A stretch of DNA of 32,000 nucleotides from Clostridium kluyveri (lineage in GTDB: Bacteria; Bacillota; Clostridia; Clostridiales; Clostridiaceae): NCBI RefSeq assembly GCF_001902295.1, contig NZ_CP018335.1, forward strand, positions 1,926,702-1,958,701, written 5' to 3'. Below the pieces are notes generated by a model. That model had not been told where the DNA came from, did not search any database, and saw only the letters and a program-made list of their open reading frames with translations. Of the stretch, positions 1-28,766 are shown piece by piece; positions within the stretch are counted from its first letter, which is position 1, and the number at the start of each line of letters is the position of its first letter. Both the position numbers and the translations under genes were made by a program.

Positions 1-10
1 ACATATAAGA

Positions 11-60
11 GGCTTAATTTCTCATATTAAAGTATTTGATATGGAGAATTAAGTCTTTTT
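11..60 (+). terminator. Intrinsic terminator of the upstream transcription unit
   Basis: Imperfect stem ggcttaatttctcatat / atatggagaattaagtc (11-27 with 39-55) followed by T5 at 56-60. Confidence 0.6.
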
Positions 61-173
61 ATATTAACACTAATTCATAGGATATTGAAGTATTTAACAA
101 AAATATTCATGTACTAATATTCAAAGTTTAAGGCTTATTATAAATAATACATTATAAAGAGGAGAGATTTAAT

Positions 174-1007
174 ATGTCAAATGTAACAGCTTTTGCAGGA
201 GTGGATGTTGGCTCATTGGGAACAAAAACAGTAATTTTAGTGGATGGAGAGATTGCTGGATTCAGTATACTTCGTACTGGACCTAATACTGAGGAAAATG
301 GGCTGAAGGGTTTAAATGCTGCACTTGAAAATGCGGGCCTTCAGCGTGAAGATTTAAAGTACATTATTGCTACAGGATATGGCAGGATTTCTGCACCTTA
401 TGCCAATAAAACCGTTACCGAAATAACTTGCCATGCTAAAGGGGCCAATTATGTTCATCCACAGACCCGAACTATTATCGATATGGGAGGGCAGGATTGT
501 AAGGCTATCCGATTGGATGAATATGGTAATGTAACAGATTTTGCTATGAATGATAAGTGTGCTGCAGGAACAGGACGTTTTCTTGAAGTTATGGCAAATG
601 TGTTGAAAGTAACTTTAGATGAATTGGGGCCATTATCTCTGAAAGCAACTGAAATATTGCCTATAAGCAGCACCTGCACTGTATTTGCGGAGTCGGAAAC
701 TGTTTCTTTGTTAGCACGTGGCGAAAAAGCGGAGAATATCATTGTCGGTATTCATCATGCCATTGCCAATAGAATTAGTGGTATGTTTTCAAGGGTTGGG
801 ATTGAAACTGACCTATTTTTCTCTGGAGGGGTAGCAAAGAATATCGGAATGAGAAAAGCATTGGAGGATGTGTTGAAAATCAACATTGCCGCTCCAGAAA
901 AGGATCCTCAATTGGTGGGAGCAATCGGTGCGGCTGTTCTGGCACAAAATGCATGGAAAAAGTTAAAAGCATTGGATAACATCGGAGAACATCCTGTGGC
1001 ATTGTAA
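174..1007 (+). CDS. BadF/BadG/BcrA/BcrD-family ATPase, 2-hydroxyacyl-CoA dehydratase / double-cubane protein activator
   Basis: ORF with RBS (gaggagag). Contains GVDVGSLGTKTV, NDKCAAGTGRFLE and SSTCTVFAESE, the ASKHA ATPase with the two cysteines that carry the bridging [4Fe-4S] in HgdC-type activators. Confidence 0.93.
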   Translation: MSNVTAFAGVDVGSLGTKTVILVDGEIAGFSILRTGPNTEENGLKGLNAALENAGLQREDLKYIIATGYGRISAPYANKTVTEITCHAKGANYVHPQTRTIIDMGGQDCKAIRLDEYGNVTDFAMNDKCAAGTGRFLEVMANVLKVTLDELGPLSLKATEILPISSTCTVFAESETVSLLARGEKAENIIVGIHHAIANRISGMFSRVGIETDLFFSGGVAKNIGMRKALEDVLKINIAAPEKDPQLVGAIGAAVLAQNAWKKLKALDNIGEHPVAL

Positions 1008-1060
1008 CAAAAAAAAATTGACATTCCAAAATTAATAAAGGAAATAGAAAGGAGAAAAAA

Positions 1061-2236
1061 ATGAGTTTGTTGACACTTGAAAAAATAAATGAGGCGGTAA
1101 AGCATCGTCCCGCAGAACTGGAAAAAGCCAGGGCTGAAGGGAGAAAAGTCGTCGGCTGGTTAAATTATAATGTTCCTGAGGAATTAATTTATGCATTGGA
1201 TTTGATTCCTATACATTTAGGTACTGGAGGAAATGATCGTCTGGTGGAATTGGGAGCACGCTATATTTCAGTAATGAATTGTGTTTTTACTCGCCAGGTG
1301 ATAGGACTTTTTTCAGAAGGTAATGATCCATATATAAAAAATACAGATGTAGTAGTAATAGACGTCACTTGCAAGCAGTTATACCGTGTTGCTGAGATAA
1401 TAAAACATTATTTTTCTATAAACACCGAAATAATTGGAGTTCCTTATAATTTTGATGTTCCTGCAGGTAAAACTTATTTTCGTAATGAAATTAAAGCATT
1501 CACAGAAAAATTAGAGAAAATCGCAGGGAAAAAAATTGAACAGGAAAAACTAGAAAAATCGGTTGAAATCTATAAAGAAATTCGTGAATCCATTAAAAGG
1601 CTTTATAAATGGCAAGCTGAACCTATTGCGCCAATTTCCTGGCGAGAAGTATATAATATCGTTCAGGCAGGATATTATCTTGATAAAGAAATCTATCTAA
1701 ATCTATTAAGAGAACTTCTGACTGAACTCACAGATGCTGTACCCAGCCAGCAAGTTTCGGCAACAGAACCGAGGATTTTTGTTTCCGGGAGCATTATTCC
1801 TCCAGGAGATAGGAAAATATTAGATATAATTGAGGAAAAAGGAGGACGGGTTGTTGTTGACGATCTTTGGTCAGGTTTTGCACCTTATTTTGATACGGAA
1901 ATAGAAGAACCTAGTATTGAGGGAATAAGCGATGCTTATATATTAAGGTATACTCATGCGTCCTTACCTCAGCTTAAGAATGATACAGATAGAAGACTAA
2001 AAAATATTCGCAGACTTATCAAAGATTTTCAGGCCAATGGAGTTTTATTTCACACATTAAGATATTGTGATTCGTTTACTTTCAAGGCAAATGAAACAAA
2101 AAATGTTTTAAAAAACGATGGCATTCCGTTTTTAGAGATTCATACTGAATATGCTGGTTCAGATTATGGAGCCATAGGGACACGAATTGAGGCTTTTGTG
2201 GAAATGTTAAAAGTAAGAACCCTTAATATTGTTTAG
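1061..2236 (+). CDS. 2-hydroxyacyl-CoA dehydratase D-component-like / double-cubane-type subunit (391 aa)
   Basis: RBS gaaaggagaa. Family-typical N-terminus (GRKVVGWLNYNVPEELIYALDLIPIHLG), three cysteines (MNC, VTCK, RYC), C-terminal GAIGTRIEAFVEML. Confidence 0.88.
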   Translation: MSLLTLEKINEAVKHRPAELEKARAEGRKVVGWLNYNVPEELIYALDLIPIHLGTGGNDRLVELGARYISVMNCVFTRQVIGLFSEGNDPYIKNTDVVVIDVTCKQLYRVAEIIKHYFSINTEIIGVPYNFDVPAGKTYFRNEIKAFTEKLEKIAGKKIEQEKLEKSVEIYKEIRESIKRLYKWQAEPIAPISWREVYNIVQAGYYLDKEIYLNLLRELLTELTDAVPSQQVSATEPRIFVSGSIIPPGDRKILDIIEEKGGRVVVDDLWSGFAPYFDTEIEEPSIEGISDAYILRYTHASLPQLKNDTDRRLKNIRRLIKDFQANGVLFHTLRYCDSFTFKANETKNVLKNDGIPFLEIHTEYAGSDYGAIGTRIEAFVEMLKVRTLNIV

Positions 2237-2252
2237 TATAGGGGTTGGGCAA

Positions 2253-3092
2253 ATGATAAAAATACAAGCAGAAAATATCGAAAAGAGATTTCCTATTAAA
2301 GCCAATCAACGAATTTATGCAAATAGTAATAAAATAGGAGAAATTCAAGTTTTGAAAGATCTGAATCTTTCTATAAAAAAAGGAGAATTTATTACAATCG
2401 TAGGCCCCAGTGGATGTGGCAAGTCTGTATTTCTCGATATGGTTGGAGGATTAACTAAGATGTCTAGTGGAAATGTATTTCTTGATGGAAAGAAAGTAAA
2501 TGGTTCTGATCCTCAGGTAGGGTATGTTTTTCAGCAATATGCTCTTCTACCATGGAGAACGGCTATATCAAATATTGAATACCCTCTGGAAATAAGAGGA
2601 ATTGAACCAGCAAAGCGAAAAGAAAAGGCAAAAAAATTGATATCACTCATCGGATTAAATGGCTTTGATAAATGGCTGCCTTATCAACTTTCTGGAGGAA
2701 TGCAGCAGCGTGTTGCAATTGCAAGATCTCTTTCCACTGATCCTGAGGTATTATTGATGGATGAACCATTTGCTGCCCTTGATGCTCAAACAAGAGAGTT
2801 GCTTCAAGAGGAACTTTTAAGAATTTGGGAAGGGATAAGAAACACTGTTATTTTTGTTACTCATAGTATAGAAGAAGCCATTTTTCTTGCTGACAGAGTG
2901 GTAGTTATGACTGCAAGACCTGGAAGGGTAAAACATATCATTGATATTCACCTCTCAAGGCCAAGAGGGGAAAATACCAGAGCTAGCAAAGAATTTGGAG
3001 CTTATAGACATAAAATTTGGGCTGCTTTAAAGGATGAGGTTAATAAAGCTCAAAAGGATTGGAAGTTATTTGCAGGTAATAATGGAAGATAA
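2253..3092 (+). CDS. ABC transporter ATP-binding protein, nitrate/sulfonate/taurine (SsuB/TauB) type
   Basis: Walker A GPSGCGKS, signature LSGGMQQR, Walker B LLMDEPFAALD. The track ORF begins at 2229; ATG 2253 preceded by aggggttggg is the more likely start. Confidence 0.9.
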   Translation: MIKIQAENIEKRFPIKANQRIYANSNKIGEIQVLKDLNLSIKKGEFITIVGPSGCGKSVFLDMVGGLTKMSSGNVFLDGKKVNGSDPQVGYVFQQYALLPWRTAISNIEYPLEIRGIEPAKRKEKAKKLISLIGLNGFDKWLPYQLSGGMQQRVAIARSLSTDPEVLLMDEPFAALDAQTRELLQEELLRIWEGIRNTVIFVTHSIEEAIFLADRVVVMTARPGRVKHIIDIHLSRPRGENTRASKEFGAYRHKIWAALKDEVNKAQKDWKLFAGNNGR

Positions 3093-3105
3093 AGGAGGAG
3101 AAAAT

Positions 3106-3987
3106 ATGTTAAATAAAGTGGAGAAAGAACAGAATACTATCTCTTACGATGAAAATTCTAACATGATTTCAGATGAATCCAGAGGTCAATTGATAAGTAA
3201 GATTATTAATCTAAAAGGGAAAATTGGTTCCTTTTTTTGGGGAGTTCCGCTTGTGGTGCTGTTCTTTCTTATATGGGAGATTGCTCCAAGAATTGGGATT
3301 CTTAGTCCCATTTTCTTTCCGCCTTTTTCAAAGGTGGTTCATGCATTATTGGATCTTATTCTAACAGGAGAACTACAAACTAATATCATAGTCAGCCTTT
3401 CTAGGGCTTTTATAGGGTTTTTGTTTGCGGTCATTATAGCTGTACCTTTAGGTTTCATTATGGGACGATATAGTTTATTTGAAAAGGTTATGGATTTATT
3501 GATTCAGGGATTGCGTAATACTTCCCAATTTGCTCTTCTTCCTGTATTTATTATGTTACTTGGTATTGGAGAAGCATCGAAGATCGCAATGACTTTTAAT
3601 GCGGCAGTATGGGTTATTTTAATAAATACTATTAGTGGAGTAAAAGGTATAGATCCTTTATTAATCAAATCCGCAATATCAATGGGAACATCTGATAAAG
3701 AACTTTTGAAAAAAATAATATTTCCAGCAAGTTTTCCATCCATTGTAACTGGAGTCCGTTTGGGTATTAAATCTTCACTTATGTCGGTAATTGCAGCTGA
3801 AATGCTTGGCGCAAAATCAGGAATTGGTTTCCTTATTCAAAATTCACAGCTAACCTATAGAATTCCACAAATGTATGCAGGAATTTTAGTTCTTACCATG
3901 TTAGGAGTGATTCTCAATTATTCTCTTGTTTGGATAGAAAAAAAAGCTACATCTTGGAAGACACAAGATGGAAATGTAACTTTCTAA
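3106..3987 (+). CDS. ABC transporter permease, SsuC/TauC type
   Basis: Multi-TM protein with a binding-protein-dependent transport permease loop (AAEMLGAKSGIGFLI). Strong RBS aaaggagg before ATG 3106; the track ORF start at 3034 is an N-terminal over-extension. Confidence 0.88.
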   Translation: MLNKVEKEQNTISYDENSNMISDESRGQLISKIINLKGKIGSFFWGVPLVVLFFLIWEIAPRIGILSPIFFPPFSKVVHALLDLILTGELQTNIIVSLSRAFIGFLFAVIIAVPLGFIMGRYSLFEKVMDLLIQGLRNTSQFALLPVFIMLLGIGEASKIAMTFNAAVWVILINTISGVKGIDPLLIKSAISMGTSDKELLKKIIFPASFPSIVTGVRLGIKSSLMSVIAAEMLGAKSGIGFLIQNSQLTYRIPQMYAGILVLTMLGVILNYSLVWIEKKATSWKTQDGNVTF

Positions 3988-4024
3988 ATAATATAAAATG
4001 AAATTTAAAAAAGGAGAAAATAAA

Positions 4025-5431
4025 ATGAATAGTAAGTTAGAAACAACAAAGATTTTCAAATTTCCCGAAAGTATAAAAGGAGCTTTTATTAAAACCCCTG
4101 GAATTCATTTCAAAGATGGAACTTATGTGAGTTCAGAAGAGATTTGGGATTTTATGACAGTCGAAGCCCCTATCAGATTTCCTTATGCGTATAGTCTTGA
4201 AAAAAATTATCAAAGTCGGTTATCAAGAGATGTGGAATTCTTTAGTGGAATTAAACATTCATATTTGAACCTAACTTTCAGAGATCGTTTATTGAGAGCT
4301 CACGCCAATGGTACTCCAATAGTTCATGTGCAAGGAGGACAAACAGTTGATCCTTATTTTGCTGCAGGGGCTATTCCAGTTGTTCCAGGACCATTAAGAG
4401 GATGGGCCAGAGATATGGAGGAAGGTTTGGATGTAAGATCAGCAGGCAGACGTGCAATGAAGATTATGGAATCAGGACGTCAGACCATCTCTATAGAATG
4501 TTGTAATAACCCTATTGGTTCAATTGAATCGATCCGTCAAAAACTTGTTCCTGTAGATCTAATTGCACCCTATCTTTGCTTGCGCTGCACGGATATTGCG
4601 TATGTTCTTGAGTCTTATCGAACAAGTATCAAGGACATTCCCTTGCATTTCATAGATTTTCCAGTGACCAGAGATAAGAAATGGACTGTGGAGTATGTAG
4701 CTGAATTGATATATGAATTAGTAAAAAAACTGGGTGATTTAAGGGGTGTTACTATTGCCAATGAAGATCTATGGAAAGAAATTAAACTGGAAAATAGAGG
4801 GCGTAGATTAGCTCGTGAGACGGTGGAAAGCATATGGAAAGCAAAAAAATTTCCTGTCACAAGTACGGATTTATCTAGCATCATTACTTCGGGGAGGTTT
4901 GACCGAGGTGATTCTTTAGCTAGTACAGAATTTTTAGAGCAGGCCAATAAGGAAGTTAAAGAAAGAATCAGTAAGGGGATTAAAGGTGCAGGCCTGTCAG
5001 ATAAACCTGTTAAAATTCTTTCTGTTGGATCCTGTTTTGGACTTAGAGCTGATTTTGTGGAAGAAAAGGGAGGGGTTATCGTTGGTACAGACGATCATCT
5101 AAGTAAGATATATGCAGATGTCGTAGAGTCCGGTGATCCTTATGAGGAAATTGCTAAGTCAATATTATCATATAAATATGAGCAACCTACAGAACAGAGA
5201 GCCCAATATGTCATTGATTTGGTTCGTGAATCTAAAGCTGATGGTGTGGTTTGCGGATATAACTGGGGATGTAATTATCAGTCTGCTTCTTCACGTATGA
5301 TTGCTGATATTGTAAAAAAAGAAACAGGAGTCCCAACAATCAATATTGAAGTTGCAGAATTAGGGTTATTGGAAGGAAATGAGCAAACTCAGAATCGACT
5401 TGAGGCATTTATAGAAATGTTGGATAATTAA
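4025..5431 (+). CDS. Second 2-hydroxyacyl-CoA dehydratase / double-cubane-type subunit
   Basis: Starts at ATG 4025 after aaaaaggag. Seven cysteines in clustered motifs (ECCNNPIG, YLCLRC, GSCFG, VCGYNWGC) and a C-terminal NRLEAFIEML family signature. Confidence 0.85.
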   Translation: MNSKLETTKIFKFPESIKGAFIKTPGIHFKDGTYVSSEEIWDFMTVEAPIRFPYAYSLEKNYQSRLSRDVEFFSGIKHSYLNLTFRDRLLRAHANGTPIVHVQGGQTVDPYFAAGAIPVVPGPLRGWARDMEEGLDVRSAGRRAMKIMESGRQTISIECCNNPIGSIESIRQKLVPVDLIAPYLCLRCTDIAYVLESYRTSIKDIPLHFIDFPVTRDKKWTVEYVAELIYELVKKLGDLRGVTIANEDLWKEIKLENRGRRLARETVESIWKAKKFPVTSTDLSSIITSGRFDRGDSLASTEFLEQANKEVKERISKGIKGAGLSDKPVKILSVGSCFGLRADFVEEKGGVIVGTDDHLSKIYADVVESGDPYEEIAKSILSYKYEQPTEQRAQYVIDLVRESKADGVVCGYNWGCNYQSASSRMIADIVKKETGVPTINIEVAELGLLEGNEQTQNRLEAFIEMLDN

Positions 5432-5522
5432 TATTTATACCCATAAACTTTACTTTGGTAATCAGGGGAGCCTGAGAAAATAAGTTAATATATTAAAGAT
5501 TATAGAGGGAGATGAATAAATA

Positions 5523-6584
5523 ATGTTAAAAAGCAAGAAGTCCATATGGGTTATATCCATTGTTGTTATTATTGCTTTAGTAGTAACAGGCACTTTATTC
5601 TATATTAAAGTGCAAAATAATGCTAAAGCACAGCAAAGCACTAAAGTAGAGGAAAAGGTTAATGTAATCAGAATTGGAAGCACAGCTCCAGGCCATTTTA
5701 AATTTATCTTAAGCCAACAAAAAAAATTGCTGGATGATGAGTTTAAAAAGGATGGTATAAAAATCGAGTATCATACTTTTGATGGTGGACAAAGTGTTAT
5801 GACAGCTTTAGCAACTGGGAGTTTAGATATTGCTTATACCGGAACTGATCCAGCTGTGCGTACTGCTGCTTCAGGAGCAGATGTAAATTTAATAGGAATT
5901 TCAAGTTTTGATAAAGGTGGAGCATCCTACATCGCTGTTAAAAAAGATTCTCCAATAAAATCAGTTAAAGATCTTAAAGGGAAAAAAGTTGCTTTTTTAA
6001 CCGGAACAATGAGACATGCAACTATTGCCAAAGCATTAAAAGCGGAAGGACTTTCTTTAGACGATATTCAGGGAGTTAATCTTGCTTTTGATGCTTCAGG
6101 CCCTGCTTTAATTCGAGGAGATATAGATGCGGTTGTTGAAAGTCTTAGTACTTTTGCGCCTTTGCTAAATACCGATACTATAAGGATTATTCTTGACGGG
6201 TCAAAACATCCAGAGTGGTCAAGCCCAAGTGCTATTTCTGCTAGTGGCAATTTTGTGAGAAAACATCCTACGCTGGTAAAAAGATTATTAAAGGTTGACC
6301 TCGCAACTTCTAAGTGGGCTGATGCTAATTATGAAGAAGCCATTAAGGTTTTTGCAGAAGGGACAAAGCAGACAGCAGAAGCAGTAAAATTGAGCTATCC
6401 AGACAAGAAATTTTATCAAGATCCTAAGATTACAGAAGATGCTATAAATGCTTTTAAATCAGAAGAGGATTTCTTAAAAGAAGCTAAACTTGCAACTGGA
6501 AGCGTAGATTACAAAAAATGGGTAAATAGTAGCTTTGTTGATGAAGTATATGGGGAACAAAGTAAAAAGTCCATAAAGAAATAA
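5523..6584 (+). CDS. ABC transporter substrate-binding protein, SsuA/THI5-like
   Basis: N-terminal hydrophobic segment, then RIGSTAPGHFKFILSQQKKLLDDEF, GGQSVMTALATGSLDIAYTG and a VKKDSPIKSVKDLKGKKVAF fold signature. No lipobox cysteine is visible. Confidence 0.88.
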   Translation: MLKSKKSIWVISIVVIIALVVTGTLFYIKVQNNAKAQQSTKVEEKVNVIRIGSTAPGHFKFILSQQKKLLDDEFKKDGIKIEYHTFDGGQSVMTALATGSLDIAYTGTDPAVRTAASGADVNLIGISSFDKGGASYIAVKKDSPIKSVKDLKGKKVAFLTGTMRHATIAKALKAEGLSLDDIQGVNLAFDASGPALIRGDIDAVVESLSTFAPLLNTDTIRIILDGSKHPEWSSPSAISASGNFVRKHPTLVKRLLKVDLATSKWADANYEEAIKVFAEGTKQTAEAVKLSYPDKKFYQDPKITEDAINAFKSEEDFLKEAKLATGSVDYKKWVNSSFVDEVYGEQSKKSIKK

Positions 6585-6816
6585 AGTAACTTTTGTGCAT
6601 TGGTAAAGCCTATTATTATTGTAATTATGAGATACAAAGGATAATAAAAAATAAGACACTGTATAACTAGATTTTAATAGTCCTATAGGGTCTTACTTTT
6701 TTCTGTATCTCTTATACAGTAGAGTTGTTCAACGGAAAAAGCTACATCAAAGTCTTAAAATAAAAAATTATGTATTAGTGTTAATTTTGTAATACTAAAA
6801 TTAGGAGGAAATTTAG

Positions 6817-8082
6817 GTGAATGTGTTATCAATGCGAGAATTGCTTGGCGAGAAGCTATTAGTGAAGAAAATATCAAATAGAATTATTAAAGGTTTTCCA
6901 GCTTTGAAGCATAAGTATTTTAGATATTTTTTAGCTGGGCAATGTATATCACTTATGGGAACTTGGGTGCAAAGAACAGCTCAGCAGTGGGTTTTTTATG
7001 ATATTACCAAATCAGCATTTTTACTTGGAGTTTTAGGAGTTTTTCAATTTACCCCAATGCTTTTATTTTCTCTTCTTGCAGGTGTTTTCGTTGACAGATT
7101 TCCTAAAAAAAAGCTTTTATTAATAACACAATTTCTACAAATGATGCAGGCGTTTGTATTTGCTATATTAATATGGTCGGGACATATAAAATATTGGCAT
7201 GTTTTAATATTAGCAGGTGTTTATGGTATTGTTCAAACTTTTGATATGCCCACAAGACAGTCGTTTTTTATAGAATTGGTAGGTAAAGATGATTTAATAA
7301 GTGCTATAGGAATGAATTCTACTATTGTAAATATAGCAAGAATATTAGGACCTGCATTTTCAGGTATTATATTATTTAAATTAGGACCTATTTTCTGCTT
7401 TCTTATTAATGGTTTTAGCTTTATAGCGGTTCTTATAGGATTAATTAGTATTAAGTCTTATTATGCAGGCATAAGAAAGAAGACATGTAATATCATGGAT
7501 GATATTGTAAATGGTTTGAAATACATTAAGTCGCAAAAAACAATACTTACCGCAGTAATATCAATGCTTTTTGTTGGGACTTTTGCATTTAATAATGAAG
7601 TTATTATACCTGTTTATGTAAAGGAAGTTTTGCATAAATCTGCTGGAGTTTATAGTACTCTTCTATCGGCTTCTGGGATAGGTGCCCTAATTGGATCTGT
7701 AAAATTTGCTTCAAATACAAAAAGAAGATTAAATGTAATATTCATTAGTAGTTCAATTTTATCCATGTGCTTAATAACTCAAAGTTTTATTCATACATAT
7801 TATGTTTCTATATTAATACTAATAATATATGGATTCTTTAATATAATTTTCATGGCATCAATTAATTTTATAATTCAAATAAATTCACGTGATGAATATA
7901 GAGGAAGAACAGTAAGTGTTTATAGTCTGGTGCTTGTTGGAACAACTCCAATCGGAAATTTATTTGCAGGGACAATAGCTGAATATTTAGGTTCTAATGC
8001 TAGTTTTCTGCTTTGTGGTGTAACAACTCTAGTATTAATGTTTTTTGTTCTTTTTAAATTTAAAGAGGTTTTTTATTCGTGA
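6817..8082 (+). CDS. MFS transporter (EntS/MFS_3-like)
   Basis: 12-TM-like ORF with RYFLAGQCISLMGTWVQRTAQQWVFYDITKSAFLLGVLG and VDRFPKKKLL. RBS aggagg. Confidence 0.85.
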   Translation: MNVLSMRELLGEKLLVKKISNRIIKGFPALKHKYFRYFLAGQCISLMGTWVQRTAQQWVFYDITKSAFLLGVLGVFQFTPMLLFSLLAGVFVDRFPKKKLLLITQFLQMMQAFVFAILIWSGHIKYWHVLILAGVYGIVQTFDMPTRQSFFIELVGKDDLISAIGMNSTIVNIARILGPAFSGIILFKLGPIFCFLINGFSFIAVLIGLISIKSYYAGIRKKTCNIMDDIVNGLKYIKSQKTILTAVISMLFVGTFAFNNEVIIPVYVKEVLHKSAGVYSTLLSASGIGALIGSVKFASNTKRRLNVIFISSSILSMCLITQSFIHTYYVSILILIIYGFFNIIFMASINFIIQINSRDEYRGRTVSVYSLVLVGTTPIGNLFAGTIAEYLGSNASFLLCGVTTLVLMFFVLFKFKEVFYS

Positions 8083-11408: not shown

Positions 11409-11888
11409 ATGTCAAAAAGTCTTGTTGCATTTTTTTCATATTCGGGAAATACAGAGGTTATTGCAAATGTCATAAAAGAAAATGTTGGTGGTGAGCTTTT
11501 CCAAATAAAAACAGTTGAATCTTATCCAACTAATTATAATAGAGTTGTGGATAAGGCTAGACAGGAGCAAAGTGTCAATTACAGACCGGAACTAGCAGTA
11601 AAAGTCACTGGTATGGATTCTTATGACATAATTTACATTGGTTATCCTAATTGGTGTAATACAATACCAATGGCGGTATTTACATTCTTTGAGTCATATG
11701 ATTTTTCTGGAAAAACAATCATACCATTCTGCACACATGGTGGAGGTGGCATGGGTAGAAGCACAACAGATATCAAAAAACTTTGTCCAAATTCAAATGT
11801 CTTAGAAGGCTTAGCAGTCAGAGGAAGTAGTGTTAATAAAGCAGGAAAAGATGTATCAGCATGGTTGAGTGAAATTGGTGTTATTTAA
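11409..11888 (+). CDS. Flavodoxin family protein
   Basis: FFSYSGNTEVIANVI FMN-phosphate loop; YDIIYIGYPNWCNTIPMAVFTFFE; FCTHGGGGMG. Confidence 0.9.
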   Translation: MSKSLVAFFSYSGNTEVIANVIKENVGGELFQIKTVESYPTNYNRVVDKARQEQSVNYRPELAVKVTGMDSYDIIYIGYPNWCNTIPMAVFTFFESYDFSGKTIIPFCTHGGGGMGRSTTDIKKLCPNSNVLEGLAVRGSSVNKAGKDVSAWLSEIGVI

Positions 11889-12019: not shown

Positions 12020-13150
12020 ATGGAAAAATCAAAAGTTTATTTTACAGATTTTCGTACGAAACTTGGAGAGGGTCTACCTACCAAGCTAAAAAGGCTGATT
12101 AAAGATGCAGGTATCGGACAAATCGATATGGATAATAAGTTCGTTGCAATCAAGATGCACTTTGGTGAACTTGGCAATCTAGGTTATCTTCGTCCAAATT
12201 ATGCTAAAGCTGTAGCCGACATGGTGAAAGAACTGGGGGGTAAACCCTTTCTAACAGACTGCAACACTCTATACCCTGGCAGCCGTAAGAATGCCCTTGA
12301 GCATCTAGAATGTGCGTGGGAAAATGGATTCACCCCCCTTACAGTAGGATGTCCTGTTATTATCGGAGATGGATTAAAGGGGACTGATGACATCGCGGTA
12401 CCTGTAATAGGTGGTGAATATATAAAAGAAGCTAAAATTGGCCATGCAATTATGGATGCTGATGTGTTTATCAGCTTAACTCACTTCAAAGGTCATGAAA
12501 TGGCTGGCTTTGGTGGTACCATTAAGAACATTGGAATGGGCTGTGGTTCCCGTGCTGGAAAAAAAGATCAGCATATTAATGGTAAACCTCATATCATAGA
12601 GGAGCAATGCCGAGGCTGCCAAAGATGCCAGCGTGAATGTGCTAATAATGGTCTGTTTTTTGATGATGTAAAAAAGAAAATGACTATCAACACAGAAAAT
12701 TGTGTTGGCTGCGGTCGTTGCCTAGGTGCATGTAATTTTGATGCAATCGAGTTTGCAAACTGGTCAGCCAGTGAAGAACTGAACTGCCGTATGGCAGAAT
12801 ACGCCAAAGCAGTAGTAGATGGCCGCTCTTGCTTCCATATTTCCCTTGTGGTGGATGTTTCACCTAATTGTGACTGCCACAGCGAAAATGATGCTCCGAT
12901 ACTTCCAAATCTAGGCATGTTAGCTTCATTTGATCCTTTGGCACTGGATCAGGCATGTGTGGATGCCTGTATGGAGGCTGCCCCGCTGATTAATAGCCAG
13001 CTGTCCGATAACATAGCAAAATCCGACTTTGTTGATCATCATGACCACTTCACTAACTCTACACCGGAATCGGAATGGCGTACTTGTCTTGACCATGCAG
13101 AAAAAATAGGAATCGGTACTCGTGAATATGAACTGATTGTTATTAAATAA
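12020..13150 (+). CDS. DUF362 domain-containing 4Fe-4S protein
   Basis: DUF362-type VYFTDFRTK...IAIKMHFGELGN; two ferredoxin motifs CRGCQRCQRECANNG and CVGCGRCLGACNFDAI. RBS acaggag. Confidence 0.88.
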   Translation: MEKSKVYFTDFRTKLGEGLPTKLKRLIKDAGIGQIDMDNKFVAIKMHFGELGNLGYLRPNYAKAVADMVKELGGKPFLTDCNTLYPGSRKNALEHLECAWENGFTPLTVGCPVIIGDGLKGTDDIAVPVIGGEYIKEAKIGHAIMDADVFISLTHFKGHEMAGFGGTIKNIGMGCGSRAGKKDQHINGKPHIIEEQCRGCQRCQRECANNGLFFDDVKKKMTINTENCVGCGRCLGACNFDAIEFANWSASEELNCRMAEYAKAVVDGRSCFHISLVVDVSPNCDCHSENDAPILPNLGMLASFDPLALDQACVDACMEAAPLINSQLSDNIAKSDFVDHHDHFTNSTPESEWRTCLDHAEKIGIGTREYELIVIK

Positions 13151-13382: not shown

Positions 13383-13745
13383 ATGGAGGTGGATCAAATG
13401 AAACATAACTATGCTGAATATGTACCAATATTTAAAGCACTTGCAGATGAGACCAGATTAAAAATAGTTGATATGCTTTCCTGTGGTGAGATGTGTGCTT
13501 GTGATATTTTAGAGTTTTTTAATATTACACAGCCAACACTTTCATACCATATGAAGATTTTAACTGATTGTAATATTGTTAACGCCAGAAAAGAAGGTTC
13601 TTGGATGAAATACTCTCTAAACTTACTTAAATTTGAGACATTTGAGAAGTTCGTGAACGACATCAGTAAAAATACTGATGATTGCATATGCAAAAATTAC
13701 TGCAAAAATATTAAAAAATGTTCCGATGATTCTGAGTGCAAATAA
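13383..13745 (+). CDS. arsR: ArsR/SmtB-family repressor with Cys-rich C-terminal tail
   Basis: wHTH ALADETRLKIVDML; metal-site-like SCGEMCACDILE on the DNA-binding side, QPTLSYHMKIL; tail CICKNYCKNIKKCSDDSECK. Preceded by a strong dyad operator. Confidence 0.9.
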   Translation: MEVDQMKHNYAEYVPIFKALADETRLKIVDMLSCGEMCACDILEFFNITQPTLSYHMKILTDCNIVNARKEGSWMKYSLNLLKFETFEKFVNDISKNTDDCICKNYCKNIKKCSDDSECK

Positions 13746-13783
13746 GTCTTATAGGAAATTAGAAATTTGGGAGGTTAGTAAAT

Positions 13784-14992
13784 TTGAATAATAACAATTA
13801 TTTCAATTCTGAAAGAAAGCTTAAGAAGAATTCTAAAGTAAAAATAGTAAGAATAAAGCAAAAACCTGATGATACATCTATTTCTTCTAACTATGAAACA
13901 GTACAGAACTCCTGTTGTTGTGGAAGTGAAAGCAAGGAATCATGTGAACACATTACTAAATATGATATAAAACAGAAATGGATAATTGGAGAAATAAGTA
14001 CCTCACAAGGCTGTGTACCATGCATTTCTACTAAATTGTCACTTACTGATATATGGGGTACATGGAAAGTACGCTTTGGAGTAAACAGAATGAATTATAA
14101 AATCAATTCAGGACTCTATGCAGTAGGAACACCTGATAACACAGCCCCTATTCTGGTAACATCAAACTATAAACTGACCTTTGATACTTTGAGAAAAGAG
14201 CTAGATGGGCTTAATGTATGGATAGTGGTACTAGATACGAAAGGGATAAATGTATGGTGTGCAGCAGGTAAGGGCACATTTGGAACTAAGGAACTTGTGA
14301 ACAGAATTTCAAAAGTAAGGCTTTCTCAAATTGTATCACACAAAACGTTAGTACTTCCTCAGCTTGGGGCACCTGGAATAAGTGCTCACCAAGTTACAAA
14401 ACAGTCTGGCTTTAAGGTGGTATATGGTCCTGTGAGAGCTAAAGATATAAAAAAGTTTTTAGAATCAGGAATGAACGCCACAGAAGAAATGCGTGAAGTA
14501 AAGTTTAATATAATTGACAGGGTGGTTCTGACACCAGTTGAATTTGTGAGTACTTTTAAAATTGCCATGTTAGTTTTTGGAATAATGTTTGTTATAAATT
14601 TATTTGCCGTTAATCCCTTTGGAGTAATTGATTTTTATGCATTTATAGGTGCATTGCTGGTGGGCTGTGTTATAACCCCTATATTACTGCCATGGATTCC
14701 AGTAAGGGCTTTTGCTGCAAAAGGCTGGATTATGGGACTTATTTGGGCAGTTACTGTAAATATACTTAATGGTTGGTCTGCAATACCGGAATATGGTGCA
14801 TTAAAAACCATTGCATATTTATTGATTTTGCCATCTGTAGCCTCATATTATGCTATGAACTTTACCGGATCTTCTACTTATACATCTTTTTCAGGTGTAA
14901 TAAAGGAGATGAAGATAGCAGTTCCTGCAATTGCTGTTTCAATAGGACTTGGAGTAGGATTGCTTTTAGTAAACAGCTTTATTCACATTTAA
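13784..14992 (+). CDS. hgcA: Mercury methylation corrinoid protein HgcA
   Basis: Diagnostic cap-helix motif GINVWCAAGKGTFGT, VLPQLGAPGISAH and about five C-terminal TM helices. TTG start after gggagg. Followed directly by HgcB. Confidence 0.92.
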   Translation: MNNNNYFNSERKLKKNSKVKIVRIKQKPDDTSISSNYETVQNSCCCGSESKESCEHITKYDIKQKWIIGEISTSQGCVPCISTKLSLTDIWGTWKVRFGVNRMNYKINSGLYAVGTPDNTAPILVTSNYKLTFDTLRKELDGLNVWIVVLDTKGINVWCAAGKGTFGTKELVNRISKVRLSQIVSHKTLVLPQLGAPGISAHQVTKQSGFKVVYGPVRAKDIKKFLESGMNATEEMREVKFNIIDRVVLTPVEFVSTFKIAMLVFGIMFVINLFAVNPFGVIDFYAFIGALLVGCVITPILLPWIPVRAFAAKGWIMGLIWAVTVNILNGWSAIPEYGALKTIAYLLILPSVASYYAMNFTGSSTYTSFSGVIKEMKIAVPAIAVSIGLGVGLLLVNSFIHI

Positions 14993-15002
14993 GGAGGTTA
15001 TT

Positions 15003-15302
15003 ATGAAGAATAAGTATTTGAAAAATGTCTGTACACTTAAGGTTGATTCAGATAAGTGTGTTGGTTGCGGAAGATGTATTGAGGTCTGCCCGCATAAAGT
15101 ATTTAATCTAAATAAAAGTAAAATTGAACTTGTTAATAAAGACGCTTGTATGGAATGTGGTGCATGTGCAAAAAACTGTGCCTTTAATGCCATTGAGGTA
15201 AAATCAGGCGTTGGATGTGCCTACGCAGTTATAATGGGATGGCTTTTAGGCACTGAACCTACATGTGATTGTTCAGGTGACAACAGCAGTGGATGCTGTT
15301 AA
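15003..15302 (+). CDS. hgcB: Mercury methylation ferredoxin HgcB
   Basis: CVGCGRCIEVCPHKVF and CMECGACAKNCAFNAIEV 4Fe-4S motifs, conserved GVGCAYAVI, C-terminal vicinal cysteines (SSGCC*). Adjacent to hgcA. Confidence 0.92.
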   Translation: MKNKYLKNVCTLKVDSDKCVGCGRCIEVCPHKVFNLNKSKIELVNKDACMECGACAKNCAFNAIEVKSGVGCAYAVIMGWLLGTEPTCDCSGDNSSGCC

Positions 15303-15312
15303 ATAGAATGGA

Positions 15313-16377
15313 GTGACTTATATGAGTATCGAACCCAAAAACAAATTGTCTTTTTTAGATAAGTTTTTAACACTTTGGATTTTTATTGCAATGGCAATAG
15401 GTATTTTATTAGGTTGGGGAGTTCCAGGTTTATCAGAGGAATTATCTAAATTATCTGTTGGTACTACATCTATACCCATAGCAATTGGACTTATTGTAAT
15501 GATGTATCCCCCACTTGCAAAAGTAAACTATAAGGAGATTGGAAAGGTATTTAGGAATCCAAAAGTTTTAGGATTATCACTTATCCAGAACTGGATTATA
15601 GGACCAATACTAATGTTTATACTTGCAGTAATTTTTTTGAAATCATATCCTGCATTTATGACAGGACTTATATTAATTGGTCTTGCAAGATGTATTGCTA
15701 TGGTTATTGTGTGGAATAGTTTAGCTGACGGCGATACGGAATATGCGGCAGCTCTTGTAGCGTTTAATTCTATATTCCAAATTATATTTTATTCTATATA
15801 CTCTTATATTTTTATTACAGTCTTACCAACTTGGATTGGTCTTACAGGTTACAAGGTAGATATATCAATGGGAGCAGTTGCTTCATCAGTAGCAGTTTAT
15901 CTGGGAATACCATTTGCGTTAGGTATATTAACAAGACTTTTATTAGAACCTAAAATGGGCACTGAATGGTACACAAAAAAGTTTATTCCTAAAATAAGTC
16001 CTTTGGCATTAATTGCTTTATTATTTACTATAATAATTATGTTTACTTATAAGGGGAAATATATAGTGGAGTTACCTATGGATGTGATAAGAATAACTAT
16101 ACCACTTATAGTTTATTTTGCTATTATGTTTACAGTTTCCTTCTTTATTAGCTTTAAAGCTGGTATTGATTATAAAAAAACGACTACTCTTGCATTTACG
16201 GCTGCAAGTAATAACTTTGAACTTGCTATTGCTGTAGCAGTTGCGGTGTTTGGGGTAGAATCTAAAGAGGCATTTACAGCAGTAATAGGACCACTTGTTG
16301 AAGTTCCAATTATGATAGGACTTGTGAATGTAGCTCTTCATTGGGGAAGAAAGTATTTTGGTTTAAAACAAGAATAA
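15313..16377 (+). CDS. acr3: Acr3-family arsenite efflux permease
   Basis: 10-TM ORF with [19 protein letters not shown] and [18 protein letters not shown] signatures of Acr3. ATG 15322 is an alternative start after aatggag. Confidence 0.92.
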
Positions 16378-16444
16378 TTATATTTATTATGTGTTGTGAA
16401 TTTAATTAAGAAATGATAATAAAGTACATGAGAGGAGAAAATTT

Positions 16445-26991: not shown

Positions 26992-27013
26992 GTATTTGTA
27001 CTATAAGTGAATA

Positions 27014-27187
27014 TTTAAGATAGAGGCGCAAAATTTATAAGTAAAGTTTTGGAGGTAAGCACAATGAAGGGACTTGAAAGGAAATTTTGCCGAAGTGTTC
27101 AACAGATGCTTTGATGTTGAATTAACTGGTTTTGTATAAAATATATACAAGACTGTCACAAATATAATTTGTGAAGAGCTATCATTC
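27014..27187 (+). promoter_or_regulatory. Lysine riboswitch (L-box) aptamer
   Basis: Conserved landmarks in order: gatagaggcgca, aagta, ggagg...gggacttgaaaggaaattttgccgaag, cuggu, gactgtcac...gtgaagagctatc. Confidence 0.93.
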
Positions 27188-27219
27188 ATTGTGGAATTAA
27201 TATATTTTTATATTTATAA

Positions 27220-27250
27220 CCTTGGGTGTACACTCTCAAGGCTATTTTTA
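27220..27250 (+). terminator. Terminator of the lysine riboswitch expression platform
   Basis: ccttgggtgtacactctcaagg followed by ctattttta, between aptamer and ATG 27309. Confidence 0.75.
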
Positions 27251-27308
27251 TGTTTATCTTACTTACTTCACTTATGGGGATTTTGATACCAATAAGGGGG
27301 AGAAAAAA

Positions 27309-28766
27309 ATGGAAAGCTCAGTAGAGCAAAATAATGAGCGTGATAATGAACTAAAAAGAGGACTTAAGACTAGACATTTAAGTATGATTGCCATAGGAGG
27401 AGCTATTGGAACAGGAATATTTTTAGCATTAGGTGCTACTATTAATCAGGCAGGTCCTGGAGGAGCACTAGTAGCTTATGGCTGTATAGGAATTATGGTT
27501 TATTTTTTAATGACGGGCTTAGGAGAAATGGCTACTTATATGCCGGTTTCAGGCTCTTTTGGTGTTTATGCCACTAAATTTGTAGATCCGGCTTTAGGAT
27601 TTGCATTAGGATGGAATTATTGGTACAATTGGGCAATAACTGTAGCTGCAGAAATGGTAGCAGGAGCGCTCATAATGAAATATTGGCTGCCAGGTGTACC
27701 AGCTATTGTGTGGAGTGTGTGTTTTTTAGCTGTAATAGTTTTATTAAATTTATTATCTGCAAGAGCTTATGGAGAATCAGAATTTTGGTTTGCAGGCATC
27801 AAAGTAGTAACCGTTATCGTTTTTATATTAGTAGGAGTAGCAACTATTATAGGCATATTTAATGGGAATCCAGTAGGACTTAAAAATTTTACAGTAGGAG
27901 AAGCACCTTTTGTAGGCGGCTTTAAATCTATATTCTTGGTATTTTTGATTGCAGGTTTTTCTTTCCAGGGTACTGAATTAGTGGGCATAGCTGCGGGAGA
28001 AAGTGAAAATCCAGAAAAAACCATACCAAAAGCTATTAATAGTATATTTTGGAGAATACTAATATTTTATATAGGAACAATATTTGTAGTAGGTGCCATA
28101 ATTCCGTATATGAATGCAGGAGTTGACACAAGTCCTTTTACTCTGGTATTTAAAAAGGCTGGTATAGCAGGAGCTGCATCTCTTATGAATGCGGTTATAT
28201 TGACTTCAGTGCTGTCAGCAGGAAACTCTGGAATGTATGCTTCAACTAGAATGTTGTATTCTATGGCTAAAGATAAGAAAGCACCTGCCTGGCTGGCAAA
28301 AGTTAATTCACGAGGAGTGCCTGTAAATTCATTGATACTTACAACAATAGTAGCATCTGCATGTTTTTTAACAGGGCTTTATGCGGAAAGTACAGTGTAT
28401 GTTTGGCTGGTAGCAGCTTCAGGTCTTGCAGGATTTGTAGCATGGCTTGGTATAGCAATTTGCCATTATCGTTTTAGAAAAGCTTATGTTGCTCAAAATA
28501 GAGATTTTGGAAGATTAAAATATAAGGCTAAATTATTTCCTTTAGGACCTATAATAGCATTGGTACTTTGTATCATAGTTATCTTGGGACAAGGAGTTAC
28601 TTATTTTGAAGCTAACAATATAGATTGGAGTGGAGTAACTTCATCTTATATAGGACTTCCGCTATTTTTAGGATTGTGGATATGGTATAAGAAAAAATAT
28701 AGTACTAAGGTAATAAAGCTAGAAGAAGTAGATTTTGACAGTATTGAAGAGGAAGTAAAATTATAA
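27309..28766 (+). CDS. lysP: Amino acid permease, probable lysine permease
   Basis: KRGLKTRHLSMIAIGGAIGTGIFLALGATINQAGPGG. RBS aagggggag before ATG 27309. Sits downstream of an L-box; the track start at 27222 lies inside the terminator hairpin. Confidence 0.88.
   Translation: MESSVEQNNERDNELKRGLKTRHLSMIAIGGAIGTGIFLALGATINQAGPGGALVAYGCIGIMVYFLMTGLGEMATYMPVSGSFGVYATKFVDPALGFALGWNYWYNWAITVAAEMVAGALIMKYWLPGVPAIVWSVCFLAVIVLLNLLSARAYGESEFWFAGIKVVTVIVFILVGVATIIGIFNGNPVGLKNFTVGEAPFVGGFKSIFLVFLIAGFSFQGTELVGIAAGESENPEKTIPKAINSIFWRILIFYIGTIFVVGAIIPYMNAGVDTSPFTLVFKKAGIAGAASLMNAVILTSVLSAGNSGMYASTRMLYSMAKDKKAPAWLAKVNSRGVPVNSLILTTIVASACFLTGLYAESTVYVWLVAASGLAGFVAWLGIAICHYRFRKAYVAQNRDFGRLKYKAKLFPLGPIIALVLCIIVILGQGVTYFEANNIDWSGVTSSYIGLPLFLGLWIWYKKKYSTKVIKLEEVDFDSIEEEVKL

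Follow-up and report, generated by a model that had tools for sequence, protein, structure and literature searches.

Gene organization of the cassette

We analysed a six-gene cassette at positions 174-6584 of a 32,000-nucleotide (nt) stretch of the Clostridium kluyveri genome (contig NZ_CP018335.1; the whole stretch is called the window below). The cassette combines genes for an ATP-driven iron-sulfur (Fe-S) enzyme with genes for an ABC importer. A total of 24 open reading frames (ORFs) of the window were scanned for domains, and the six genes, their order, strand and domains were all confirmed as described in the initial annotation. The order on the + strand is activator, small HGD-D subunit, ABC ATPase, ABC permease, large HGD-D subunit and SsuA-family binding protein, and a transporter gene follows:

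174..1007, + strand: activator ATPase of the HgdC/BcrAD/BadFG type, 277 amino acids (aa) (PF01869, 223.7 bits; TIGR00241, 286.1 bits)
1061..2236, + strand: small HGD-D subunit, 391 aa (PF06050, 279.2 bits)
2253..3092, + strand: ABC ATPase of the NitT/TauT family, 279 aa from the ATG at 2253 (PF00005, 108.9 bits)
3106..3987, + strand: ABC permease of the TauC/SsuC type (BPD_transp_1), 293 aa from the ATG at 3106 (PF00528, 76.4 bits)
3998..5431, + strand: large HGD-D subunit, 477 aa (PF06050, 174.4 bits, residues 121-475 only)
5523..6584, + strand: SsuA-family extracytoplasmic binding protein, 353 aa (TIGR01728, 251.8 bits; PF09084, 76.6 bits)
6817..8082, + strand: MFS_3 (EntS-like) transporter, probable accessory exporter of the carbon product (PF05977, 200 bits)

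Two ORFs had been called mechanically from more upstream starts (ATPase, TTG at 2229; permease, 3034). The true start of the ATPase, judged from the sequence and from the lengths of homologues (278-279 aa), is likely the ATG at 2253, and that of the permease is likely the ATG at 3106, which has AGGAGG 8 nt upstream. With these revised starts the overlaps of the two genes are only apparent and give way to gaps of 16 and 13 nt. The intergenic gaps across the cassette are then 53, 16, 13, 10 and 91 nt, and no strong terminator-like site was found between the six genes. The MFS_3 gene lies 232 nt downstream of the cassette and, because of this separation, may be its own transcription unit. The G+C content per kb was 0.33-0.38 in window positions 1-7000 and mostly 0.24-0.37 in positions 7000-32000, with one peak of 0.43; the slightly higher G+C of the cassette is compatible with horizontal acquisition, though no proof of it.

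Conservation of the cassette across genomes

Related loci were collected by a pattern-based scan of a genome collection (44 loci; the scan was not exhaustive), and the six components were mapped in them by phmmer. The results showed that the activator, small subunit and large subunit occurred together wherever a locus extended 5 kb or more on each side (17 of 17), and that a complete NitT/TauT-type (SsuABC-like) ABC system lay within 6 kb of this trio in 11 of the 17. The exact interleaved order of the window, with the transporter genes between the two enzyme subunits as first described, recurred in seven other loci (eight with the window): Ca. Clostridium eludens, a Bacillota metagenome-assembled genome (MAG), two Spirochaetia MAGs and three Methanoperedens genomes, with large subunits 65-94% identical. 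Because this exact order recurs in Bacteria and Archaea at such identity, the whole cassette appears, on these sequences, to have been transferred between the two domains. The same parts were found in other orders in Chlorobiaceae, Margulisiibacteriota/Termititenax, Altiarchaeia, Bathyarchaeota, a Kineosporiaceae MAG, Rhodomicrobium vannielii and Methylomusa. Across phyla and in both domains, the enzyme genes have stayed next to the transporter genes. Such a conserved interleaved arrangement is far beyond chance, and the six genes almost certainly form one conserved functional module.

The hosts live where lignocellulose or humic matter is plentiful (termite gut, bog and boreal lakes, for example), and the non-exhaustive scan gave no match in C. 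beijerinckii or C. pasteurianum. Among the archaeal loci, the Methanoperedens-like locus L008 carried one activator and one small subunit together with up to six large-subunit paralogues alternating with five binding proteins.

The activator and the two enzyme subunits

The activator carried a full-length BcrAD_BadFG (ASKHA) domain and matched TIGR00241 over residues 8-256 of 277, with scores above the respective cut-offs (PF01869, 31.5 bits; TIGR00241, 125.4 bits). Cys86, Cys109, Cys129 and Cys168 were all invariant in 40 homologues, including the motif cysteines of NDKCAAGTG (Cys129) and SSTCTVFAE (Cys168). We take Cys129 and Cys168 to correspond to HgdC Cys127 and Cys166, which bridge one [4Fe-4S] cluster. 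The activator presumably uses ATP to inject electrons and holds its [4Fe-4S] cluster between two monomers. Two window genes downstream of the cassette encode proteins that could conceivably donate electrons to the activator: a flavodoxin (11409-11888, + strand; PF12682, 106.5 bits) and, at 12020-13150 on the + strand, a DUF362 protein containing a 4Fe-4S dicluster insert.

The small subunit has exactly 3 Cys (74, 104 and 336), which were kept across 37 homologues. Its nearest solved relatives were the double-cubane cluster protein (DCCP; 6ENO/7YYL, E 1e-34) and then HadC (E 4e-26), and it was single-copy even in loci with up to six large-subunit paralogues. It is presumed to be an electron relay with one [4Fe-4S] or [4Fe-5S] cluster.

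The large subunit has 7 Cys (168, 169, 194, 197, 346, 419 and 425), so that the cysteine counts given earlier for both subunits were correct. Only Cys169, Cys197, Cys346 and Cys425 were invariant among 25 family sequences reaching down to 44% identity; Cys169, Cys197 and Cys425 aligned with the canonical cluster triad of HadB/HadC, and Cys346 is a fourth invariant residue extra to that triad. The DCCP seven-cysteine motif (CX19CX18-19CX29CX166-170CX32-34CX32C) was absent from both subunits even when the spacings were relaxed by ~5 residues. The reading of the seven clustered cysteines as a hint of a double cubane was therefore rejected, although the count itself stood. Because the conserved cysteines number three in the small and four in the large subunit, single [4Fe-4S] clusters and no double cubane are expected, in a dehydratase-like architecture of two single cubanes, of which the catalytic one would have an open iron site. 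The large subunit is presumed to be the catalytic, substrate-specific partner with one [4Fe-4S] cluster; its role in setting specificity is suggested by the archaeal arrays, in which up to six large paralogues share a single activator and a single small subunit.

By sequence, the large subunit matched only HadC among solved structures (E 9e-7), and it has a family-specific N-terminal extension of ~120 residues, its Pfam match beginning at residue 121. The AlphaFold2 model built with 25 family members had a pLDDT of 88.8 and a pTM of 0.89, and a Foldseek search with it returned MbdN, DCCP, HadB, BzdN and BzdO about equally (E ~1e-15, 15-18% identity). Being equidistant from all solved relatives at this identity, the large subunit is a deep, separate branch of the superfamily of class I benzoyl-CoA reductases (BCR), 2-hydroxyacyl-CoA dehydratases (HAD) and DCCP. 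Its family comprised 28 cluster representatives at E<=1e-30 among 1.84 billion sequences, beyond which scores dropped sharply to generic HGD-D matches aligning only from about residue 200; by these searches the family is rare and well delimited.

The 3998-5431 product matches, at 100% identity, a protein recorded in C. kluyveri as '2-hydroxyacyl-CoA dehydratase subunit D'. That the cassette encodes an ordinary 2-hydroxyacyl-CoA dehydratase or benzoyl-CoA reductase, its genes interrupted by an unrelated sulfonate transporter, is nevertheless scarcely credible. Both subunits do carry HGD-D and the activator is canonical, but the curated models did not recognise them. The double_cubane model (NF040772, cut-off 350) gave 219.4 bits for the small and 94.3 bits for the large subunit; HadC (cut-off 700) gave 127.7 and 52.5 bits, HadB (cut-off 750) 44.6 and 20.8 bits, and BcrC (cut-off 421) 100 and 36 bits. 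BzdN (cut-off 454) gave 76 bits for the small subunit, with no score listed for the large one, and BzdO/BcrB gave at most 22 bits; the benzoyl-CoA reductase models overall stayed at 17-100 bits against cut-offs of 421-487. The relevant equivalog scores were thus 20-128 bits against cut-offs of 420-750. Judged by these profiles, both subunits are outside every curated dehydratase, benzoyl-CoA reductase and double-cubane family, and, with the large subunit 15-18% identical to its solved relatives, neither falls inside a characterised acyl-CoA clade, in keeping with the initial annotation. The interleaving is kept in eight loci across domains, the cassette has a single activator gene, and the six-cysteine BzdN-type cluster is absent.

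No CoA-transferase, CoA-ligase or acyl-CoA dehydrogenase gene was seen among the 24 scanned window ORFs, as had been noted before, nor did any of these rank in the top 25 Pfam families counted over 146 ORFs that neighbour the module at 24 related loci. A classical CoA pathway was rejected on this lack of a CoA-activating neighbour. NCBIfam release 20.0 (June 2026) held no specific model for the cassette enzyme, the PDB held no close relative, and our literature search found no paper on this enzyme-importer system; the mlp methyltransferase cluster is unrelated to the cassette (PMC10418091). We regard the cassette enzyme as a new branch of the ATP-dependent Fe-S radical enzymes, one that is coupled to a transporter and independent of CoA.

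The importer and its binding protein

The ABC ATPase matched SaoA (249 bits), TauB (231 bits) and nitrate NtrCD (226 bits) best among NCBIfam models, and the permease matched SaoP (158 bits), TauC (122 bits) and SsuC (119 bits), all under their cut-offs. The binding protein exceeded the cut-off of the SsuA_fam model TIGR01728 (163.5 bits). Its nearest solved relatives were E. coli SsuA (2X26, E 5e-21), SsuA 3UIF, X. citri SsuA (3E4R) and TauA (6SSY); it has an N-terminal membrane anchor and no Cys. All associated binding proteins tested, from seven lineages, had TIGR01728 as their top NCBIfam match, and all had a hydrophobic N-terminus in the form of a signal peptide, lipobox or membrane anchor. 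Gram-negative loci added a Porin_O_P-family anion-type porin (41 bits, cut-off 21) or a TonB-dependent receptor.

Two Methanoperedens-type arrays differed strongly in how fast their parts had diverged. Between L007 and L008, orthologous large-subunit paralogues were 96-98% identical, whereas the flanking binding proteins were only 52-72% identical (for example L008:12468-16333 versus L007:6896-10798). The binding-protein cassettes have either been shuffled or replaced, or are diversifying far faster than the enzyme genes.

Sulfur genes beside the module

Pfam domains were called in 12 contexts (L045-L056), and the other loci were re-searched using proteins from these. Sulfur-assimilation genes lay within 10 kb in 9 of the 12 annotated contexts. 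Siroheme reductase genes were present in 3 of the 12 and in five lineages overall, against a roughly estimated frequency of ~1-2% per 20-gene neighbourhood for sulfite-reductase-type (SIR) genes (1-2 per ~3000-gene genome). In L051, a 773-aa fusion of a siroheme NIR_SIR protein with TusA is encoded between the enzyme genes and the transporter genes. L055 has the gene order of the window at 79% identity and, directly upstream, a small sulfite-reductase-type gene, TusA, ThiF and ThiS; in L050, SIR, TusA, ThiS, ThiF, JAB and MetY lie ~3.6 kb downstream of the module. SIR-type genes were also found in L023 and L036, the Bathyarchaeota and Kineosporiaceae loci.

Other assimilatory genes recurred. 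In R. vannielii (L045), cysK (TIGR01139, 395.9 bits, cut-off 351) and an Rrf2 regulator with CymR as its best specific match lie just upstream of the TonB receptor and the module, and L054 carries a cysK that also exceeds the cut-off (478 bits). MetY-type genes were present in L049, L052, L023 and L050, another Cys_Met_Meta_PP enzyme in L053, MetX/MetW among the neighbours in the set L049, L052, L053 and L054, and CysNC in L047. A 77-aa TusA/YedF-like gene lies inside five archaeal operons (L049, L008, L019, L007 and L040). DUF2292 proteins of 60-70 aa are encoded just upstream of porin or activator genes in four loci, two of them Margulisiibacteriota (L016:3743-3925, L021:5146-5361, L051:7456-7647 and L053:5057-5242); their sole NCBIfam match was 'sulfur starvation response protein OscA' at 38-51 bits, under the cut-off of 85.

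These results suggest that the cassette is probably an oxygen-independent, ATP-driven desulfonation module, which would scavenge sulfur from organic sulfonates and release sulfite for assimilation. Sulfite is proposed as the product because this is the simplest reason for a sulfite reductase to be encoded within or next to the module, and sulfonates are proposed as the substrate because of the sulfite product and the SsuA-type importer. The suggestion of uptake and reduction for nutrient scavenging in the initial annotation is supported and is narrowed towards sulfur by the sulfur-assimilation neighbours of many lineages, while the nitrogen and detoxification alternatives offered with it have much less support.

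Exporters, methyltransferases and regulators

A census of 146 neighbouring ORFs in 24 loci was led by ABC_tran (13), MFS_1 (9), Peripla_BP_2 (7), class-I methyltransferases (6) and ABC_membrane (5), followed by MFS_3 (3), TusA (3), LacI-type regulators (3) and nitroreductase (2). Orthologues of the window MFS_3 transporter (~200 bits) are encoded directly downstream of the module in L001 (eludens), L021 (Termititenax) and L045 (R. vannielii), and MFS_3 genes were also present in L050 and L053. An ABC-B exporter pair follows the module directly in L055 and accompanies the downstream MFS_3 gene in L045. This recurrent import-enzyme-export pattern would suit a cell that retains sulfur and gets rid of the remaining carbon skeleton.

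In several lineages, a UbiE/ArsM/BioC-like class-I S-adenosylmethionine methyltransferase gene lay within the module or was attached to it (L008:18790-19614, L040:14421-15236 and 19073-19879, L048:2579-3403, L054:5709-6533 and L052:12582-13301). In L008 and L040 the methyltransferase gene is followed directly by the TusA-like gene and then by an ABC ATPase gene, and in L040 next by an ABC-2-type permease gene. The enzyme might methylate a thiol or phenolic product before it is exported.

The same genes bear on a detoxification role, in which a toxic organo-arsenic, organo-selenium or other anion would be imported, reduced, methylated and exported in a manner like that of the SAO locus. UbiE/ArsM-like methyltransferases occurred in 6 of the 24 censused loci and exporters were the commonest neighbours; the TusA-like protein scored best against YedF, a 'selenium metabolism protein', the ATPase and permease scored best against SaoA and SaoP, and double-cubane proteins have been tied to the SAO locus and SelD (Haft, 10.1101/2022.07.06.499078). 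However, all Sao scores were below cut-off, selenocysteine codons and CC/CU motifs were absent, and the binding protein is free of Cys. A high-affinity ABC importer for a poison is unlikely, and the cysK, SIR, MetY and CysNC neighbours are assimilatory. Detoxification is accordingly very improbable.

We regard as similarly improbable a catabolic enzyme that would serve carbon or energy supply from a CoA-free organic acid (aromatic or hydroxy), with the nearby sulfur genes a coincidence. The NitT/TauT transporters also carry aromatic acids, the hosts come from habitats rich in lignocellulose or humic matter, and LacI-family, substrate-type regulators lie upstream in Clostridial loci. In L001 such a gene is divergent and ~520 nt upstream. 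The window has a perfect sigma-70-like promoter (TTGACA, 18 nt, TATAAT; 12/12) at 151-180 on the - strand, pointing away from the cassette; it would fit a divergent regulator gene, as in L001, just outside the window. Against catabolism, beta-oxidation, ring-opening hydrolase and dehydrogenase genes were not recurrent among the neighbours, exporters follow the enzyme genes, uptake plus ATP-driven reduction would be costly for a bulk substrate, and sulfur markers are present in 9 of the 12 annotated contexts.

Proposed mechanism of desulfonation

For sulfonate desulfonation, five steps can be proposed. An anionic organosulfonate would be captured outside the cell by the SsuA-like protein and imported by the TauBC/SsuBC-like ABC components, as their family membership suggests. 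The activator would then be reduced by ferredoxin or flavodoxin and hydrolyse ATP, passing a very low-potential electron to the small-subunit [4Fe-4S] cluster and on to the large-subunit cluster, by homology with HgdC, HadI, BzdPQ and DCCP-R. ATP might be consumed for each electron, as BCR does, or in catalytic amounts, as HAD does. In the third and most speculative step, the sulfonate would bind at the open iron of the large-subunit cluster and the C-SO3 bond would be cleaved, in the reductive form as R-SO3- + 2e- + 2H+ -> R-H + HSO3-. One-electron transfer could yield Fe-bound sulfite and a carbon radical, which may be quenched by a second electron and a proton or by H-atom transfer; the H atom or the proton could come from the invariant Cys346. 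If the sulfonate carries a carbonyl group, the bond might break instead by a ketyl-type elimination of the HAD kind. Judging from the neighbourhoods in other genomes, a siroheme sulfite reductase would then reduce the sulfite and supply TusA, CysK, MetY or ThiS-type carriers. Finally, the desulfonated carbon skeleton would leave through an MFS, ABC-B, ABC-2 or MATE exporter, genes for which recur beside the module. The archaeal arrays of catalytic-subunit and binding-protein paralogues would widen the range of sulfonates. The more specific claim, that this is an oxygen-independent desulfonase of strict anaerobes and the first BCR/HAD/DCCP member to act on a CoA-free imported nutrient by ATP-energised C-SO3 cleavage, seems to us evenly balanced.

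Instead of a sulfonate, the enzyme could cleave the C-S bond of reduced organosulfur compounds (thiols, thioethers, thiones or coenzyme-M-like molecules). The sulfur would pass to the cluster, changing it from [4Fe-4S] to [4Fe-5S], and then as persulfide or sulfide to TusA, CysK or MetY, and sulfite would not be the product. Several features agree with this: TusA-like genes lie inside the five archaeal operons, CysK and MetY take sulfide directly, the invariant Cys346 could carry a persulfide, and the superfamily includes [4Fe-5S] sites (HadC) and the desulfidase TudS (PMC11971306). But an enzyme that released sulfide would leave no use for the siroheme sulfite-reductase-type genes that five lineages carry within or next to the module, and the consistently SsuA-like importer, accompanied by anion-type porins, implies an oxyanion. 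We therefore judge this route unlikely.

Evidence that weighs against sulfonate desulfonation

Several results count against a sulfonate-to-sulfite route. No sulfur-assimilation gene was identified among the 24 scanned C. kluyveri window ORFs, and ~10 Chlorobiaceae loci were without any of the sulfur markers searched. The third step of the mechanism is without direct precedent in the BCR/HAD/DCCP superfamily. No S-box, T-box or other riboswitch was found upstream of the operon in the window and seven related loci at the Rfam gathering threshold, and the regulator carried divergently by the Clostridial loci is of the LacI family.

The binding protein itself gives a mixed picture. The known sulfonate contacts are Gln36, Gly68, Gly86 and Ser141 in X. 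citri SsuA and Gln30, Gly61, Gly79 and Thr132 in TauA. The sulfonate-bonding Gln is replaced in the window protein by Ala55 or Thr54. The other three contacts are Gly, Gly and Thr, which is compatible with sulfonate binding, but they act mainly through main-chain NH and are weakly diagnostic. Paired evolution of the large-subunit paralogues and their adjacent binding proteins was not supported: in one-to-one mirror-tree (Mantel) comparisons of both phases, the correlation was not significant (Spearman -0.08, P = 0.62, and 0.30, P = 0.12).

Four loci had the enzyme trio without an SsuA-type importer: L025 (Methanoregula), L026 (a Bacillota MAG), L034 (Methanoculleus) and L037 (Methanospirillum lacunae). 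This importer-less subclade was surrounded by several Peripla_BP_2 binding proteins and ABC ATPases, with FecCD permeases in two censused ORFs, DUF364/DUF4213 'heavy-metal chelation' proteins in L025, L034 and L037, and a methyltransferase in L025 and L034. These neighbours hint at a different, chelate-like substrate class, and family members need not all share one substrate class.

The siroheme reductases scored best against 'NirA family' and ferredoxin-nitrite reductase models, and whether they reduce sulfite or nitrite cannot be told from sequence alone. If they were nitrite reductases, the module could scavenge nitrogen, taking up a nitro, nitrile or N-heterocyclic anion and yielding nitrite or ammonia. 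Besides the best matches of the large siroheme proteins, this agrees with the nitroreductase-family genes that adjoin the module in L051 and L028, the nitrate and cyanate importers within the NitT/TauT family, and the Methylomusa locus beside anfHDGK. It conflicts with the fusion or pairing of the siroheme proteins with TusA and with the accompanying ThiS/ThiF/MetY, cysK, CysNC and OscA-like genes. No binding protein had a nitrate or cyanate model on top, and glutamine synthetase, PII and NtcA-type genes were not noticed near the module. We consider nitrogen scavenging quite improbable.

Other features of the window and of related loci

In Methylomusa anaerophila, a Fe-only-type nitrogenase set (NifH-like, Oxidored_nitro, AnfG_VnfG and Oxidored_nitro; L046:13513-17778) lies 2 kb downstream of the module, and L054 begins with a NifH-like gene; this proximity may be a coincidence in diazotrophs. 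Riboswitch or T-box control of the cassette was rejected, the sole Rfam match being a lysine riboswitch far downstream (RF00168, 115.5 bits, 27013-27189, + strand). It lies directly upstream of a gene for a 514-aa amino-acid permease (27222-28766; PF00324, 481 bits), presumably a lysine-regulated transporter. A co-directional run at 13383-18094 (+ strand), 7 kb from the cassette, encodes an ArsR regulator, a CdhD-like protein, an SBF transporter and a fusion of a pyridine-nucleotide-disulfide oxidoreductase with rhodanese, which is CoA-disulfide- or persulfide-reductase-like; the run could be a metalloid- or persulfide-stress unit.

Comparison with known systems

The HAD systems HgdAB with HgdC, HadBC with HadI and FldBC with FldI share with the cassette two HGD-D paralogues with three canonical cluster cysteines each and a separate homodimeric ASKHA ATPase with a bridging [4Fe-4S] cluster, which is predicted here. 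The fold matched HadB/HadC with a TM of ~0.8 on the target, whereas sequence identity was 15-16%. The cassette differs in the absence of a CoA-transferase partner, in its obligate link to an importer, and in the extra ~120 N-terminal residues and fourth invariant Cys of the large subunit. HAD reactions are redox-neutral, whereas the net reaction of the cassette is probably reductive.

Class I benzoyl-CoA reductases carry out chemistry beyond the normal redox window (PMC11971306). As proposed for the cassette, BzdNOPQ, BcrABCD and MbdONPQ send ATP-energised electrons to a catalytic, open-site [4Fe-4S] cluster in the larger subunit and were equally close by Foldseek. BzdN holds a six-cysteine [8Fe-9S] double cubane with the ligands Cys36, Cys73, Cys100, Cys263, Cys293 and Cys327 (PMC11971306), which is impossible in the cassette small subunit with its 3 Cys. 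These reductases also have two different activator subunits, whereas the cassette has one activator gene and no CoA substrate logic. DCCP with its reductase DCCP-R (YjiM/YjiL type) is the closest sequence relative of the small subunit and carries out an ATP-driven reduction of small molecules with no CoA substrate, as is presumed for the cassette; it differs in being a homodimer built on the seven-cysteine [8Fe-9S] motif.

On the transport side, SsuABC and TauABC, working with SsuD/SsuE or TauD, share the transporter family and the proposed purpose, sulfite from sulfonates under sulfur limitation. SsuD and TauD need O2, whereas the cassette has an ATP-driven Fe-S enzyme; the sulfonate-binding Gln is lost, and the cassette transporter did not reach the E. 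coli-type Ssu/Tau equivalog cut-offs. The nearest published case of a NitT/TauT importer linked both genomically and phyletically to an ATP-dependent enzyme of the HGD-D family is the SAO locus SaoA/SaoP/SaoB/SaoX, which is tied to double-cubane proteins (Haft and Gwadz, bioRxiv 10.1101/2022.07.06.499078). The cassette stayed below its cut-offs (SaoA, 249 against 360 bits; SaoP, 158 against 295; SaoX, 56 against 300) and lacked its hallmarks: selenoproteins are absent, and a MerB-like SaoL was not seen among the scanned ORFs of the window. The SAO partner is a DCCP, whereas the cassette enzyme is a predicted single-cubane heterodimer.

A functional analogue is the nitrogenase-like methylthio-alkane reductase MarBHDK, for which North et al. 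in 2020 reportedly described ATP-dependent reductive C-S cleavage and sulfur salvage when sulfate is scarce. The families are unrelated (NifH/NifDK-like versus an ASKHA activator with HGD-D), the substrates of MarBHDK are volatile thioethers, and its product is methanethiol and not sulfite; we know of no dedicated importer for it. Glycyl-radical sulfonate lyases such as IslA and HpsG achieve O2-free radical C-S cleavage with release of sulfite (PMC6386719). They differ from the cassette enzyme in fold, in their radical-SAM activase, in being limited to hydroxylated C2/C3 sulfonates and in serving mainly respiration or fermentation, not assimilation.

Significance for anaerobic sulfur nutrition

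Sulfonates form a large share of the organic sulfur in soils, sediments and humic waters. The known general desulfonating enzymes, SsuD, MsuD and TauD, require O2, and known anaerobic routes, among them the glycyl-radical lyases and Xsc, are restricted to a small number of functionalised C2/C3 sulfonates; to our knowledge, no enzyme has been identified for O2-free harvest of sulfur from organic sulfonates in general. In 1996-97, Denger, Cook and colleagues reportedly found that Clostridia take sulfur anaerobically from alkyl- and arylsulfonates, for example converting toluenesulfonate to toluene, an activity to which, as far as we know, no enzyme has been assigned. Sulfonates and sulphate esters together make up >95% of the available sulphur in aerobic soils (PMC3839906).

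If the proposed function is correct, the cassette would provide a candidate enzyme for this gap in anaerobic Clostridial desulfonation and a new reaction class, C-S cleavage with no CoA, for the BCR/HAD/DCCP superfamily. It would also represent a second ATP-powered strategy of sulfur salvage beside the nitrogenase-like methylthio-alkane reductase, and might serve the anaerobic removal of sulfonated pollutants. The module could then explain how methanotrophic archaea, photoferrotroph-type Chlorobia and termite-gut symbionts obtain their sulfur in anoxic habitats where sulfate is scarce.

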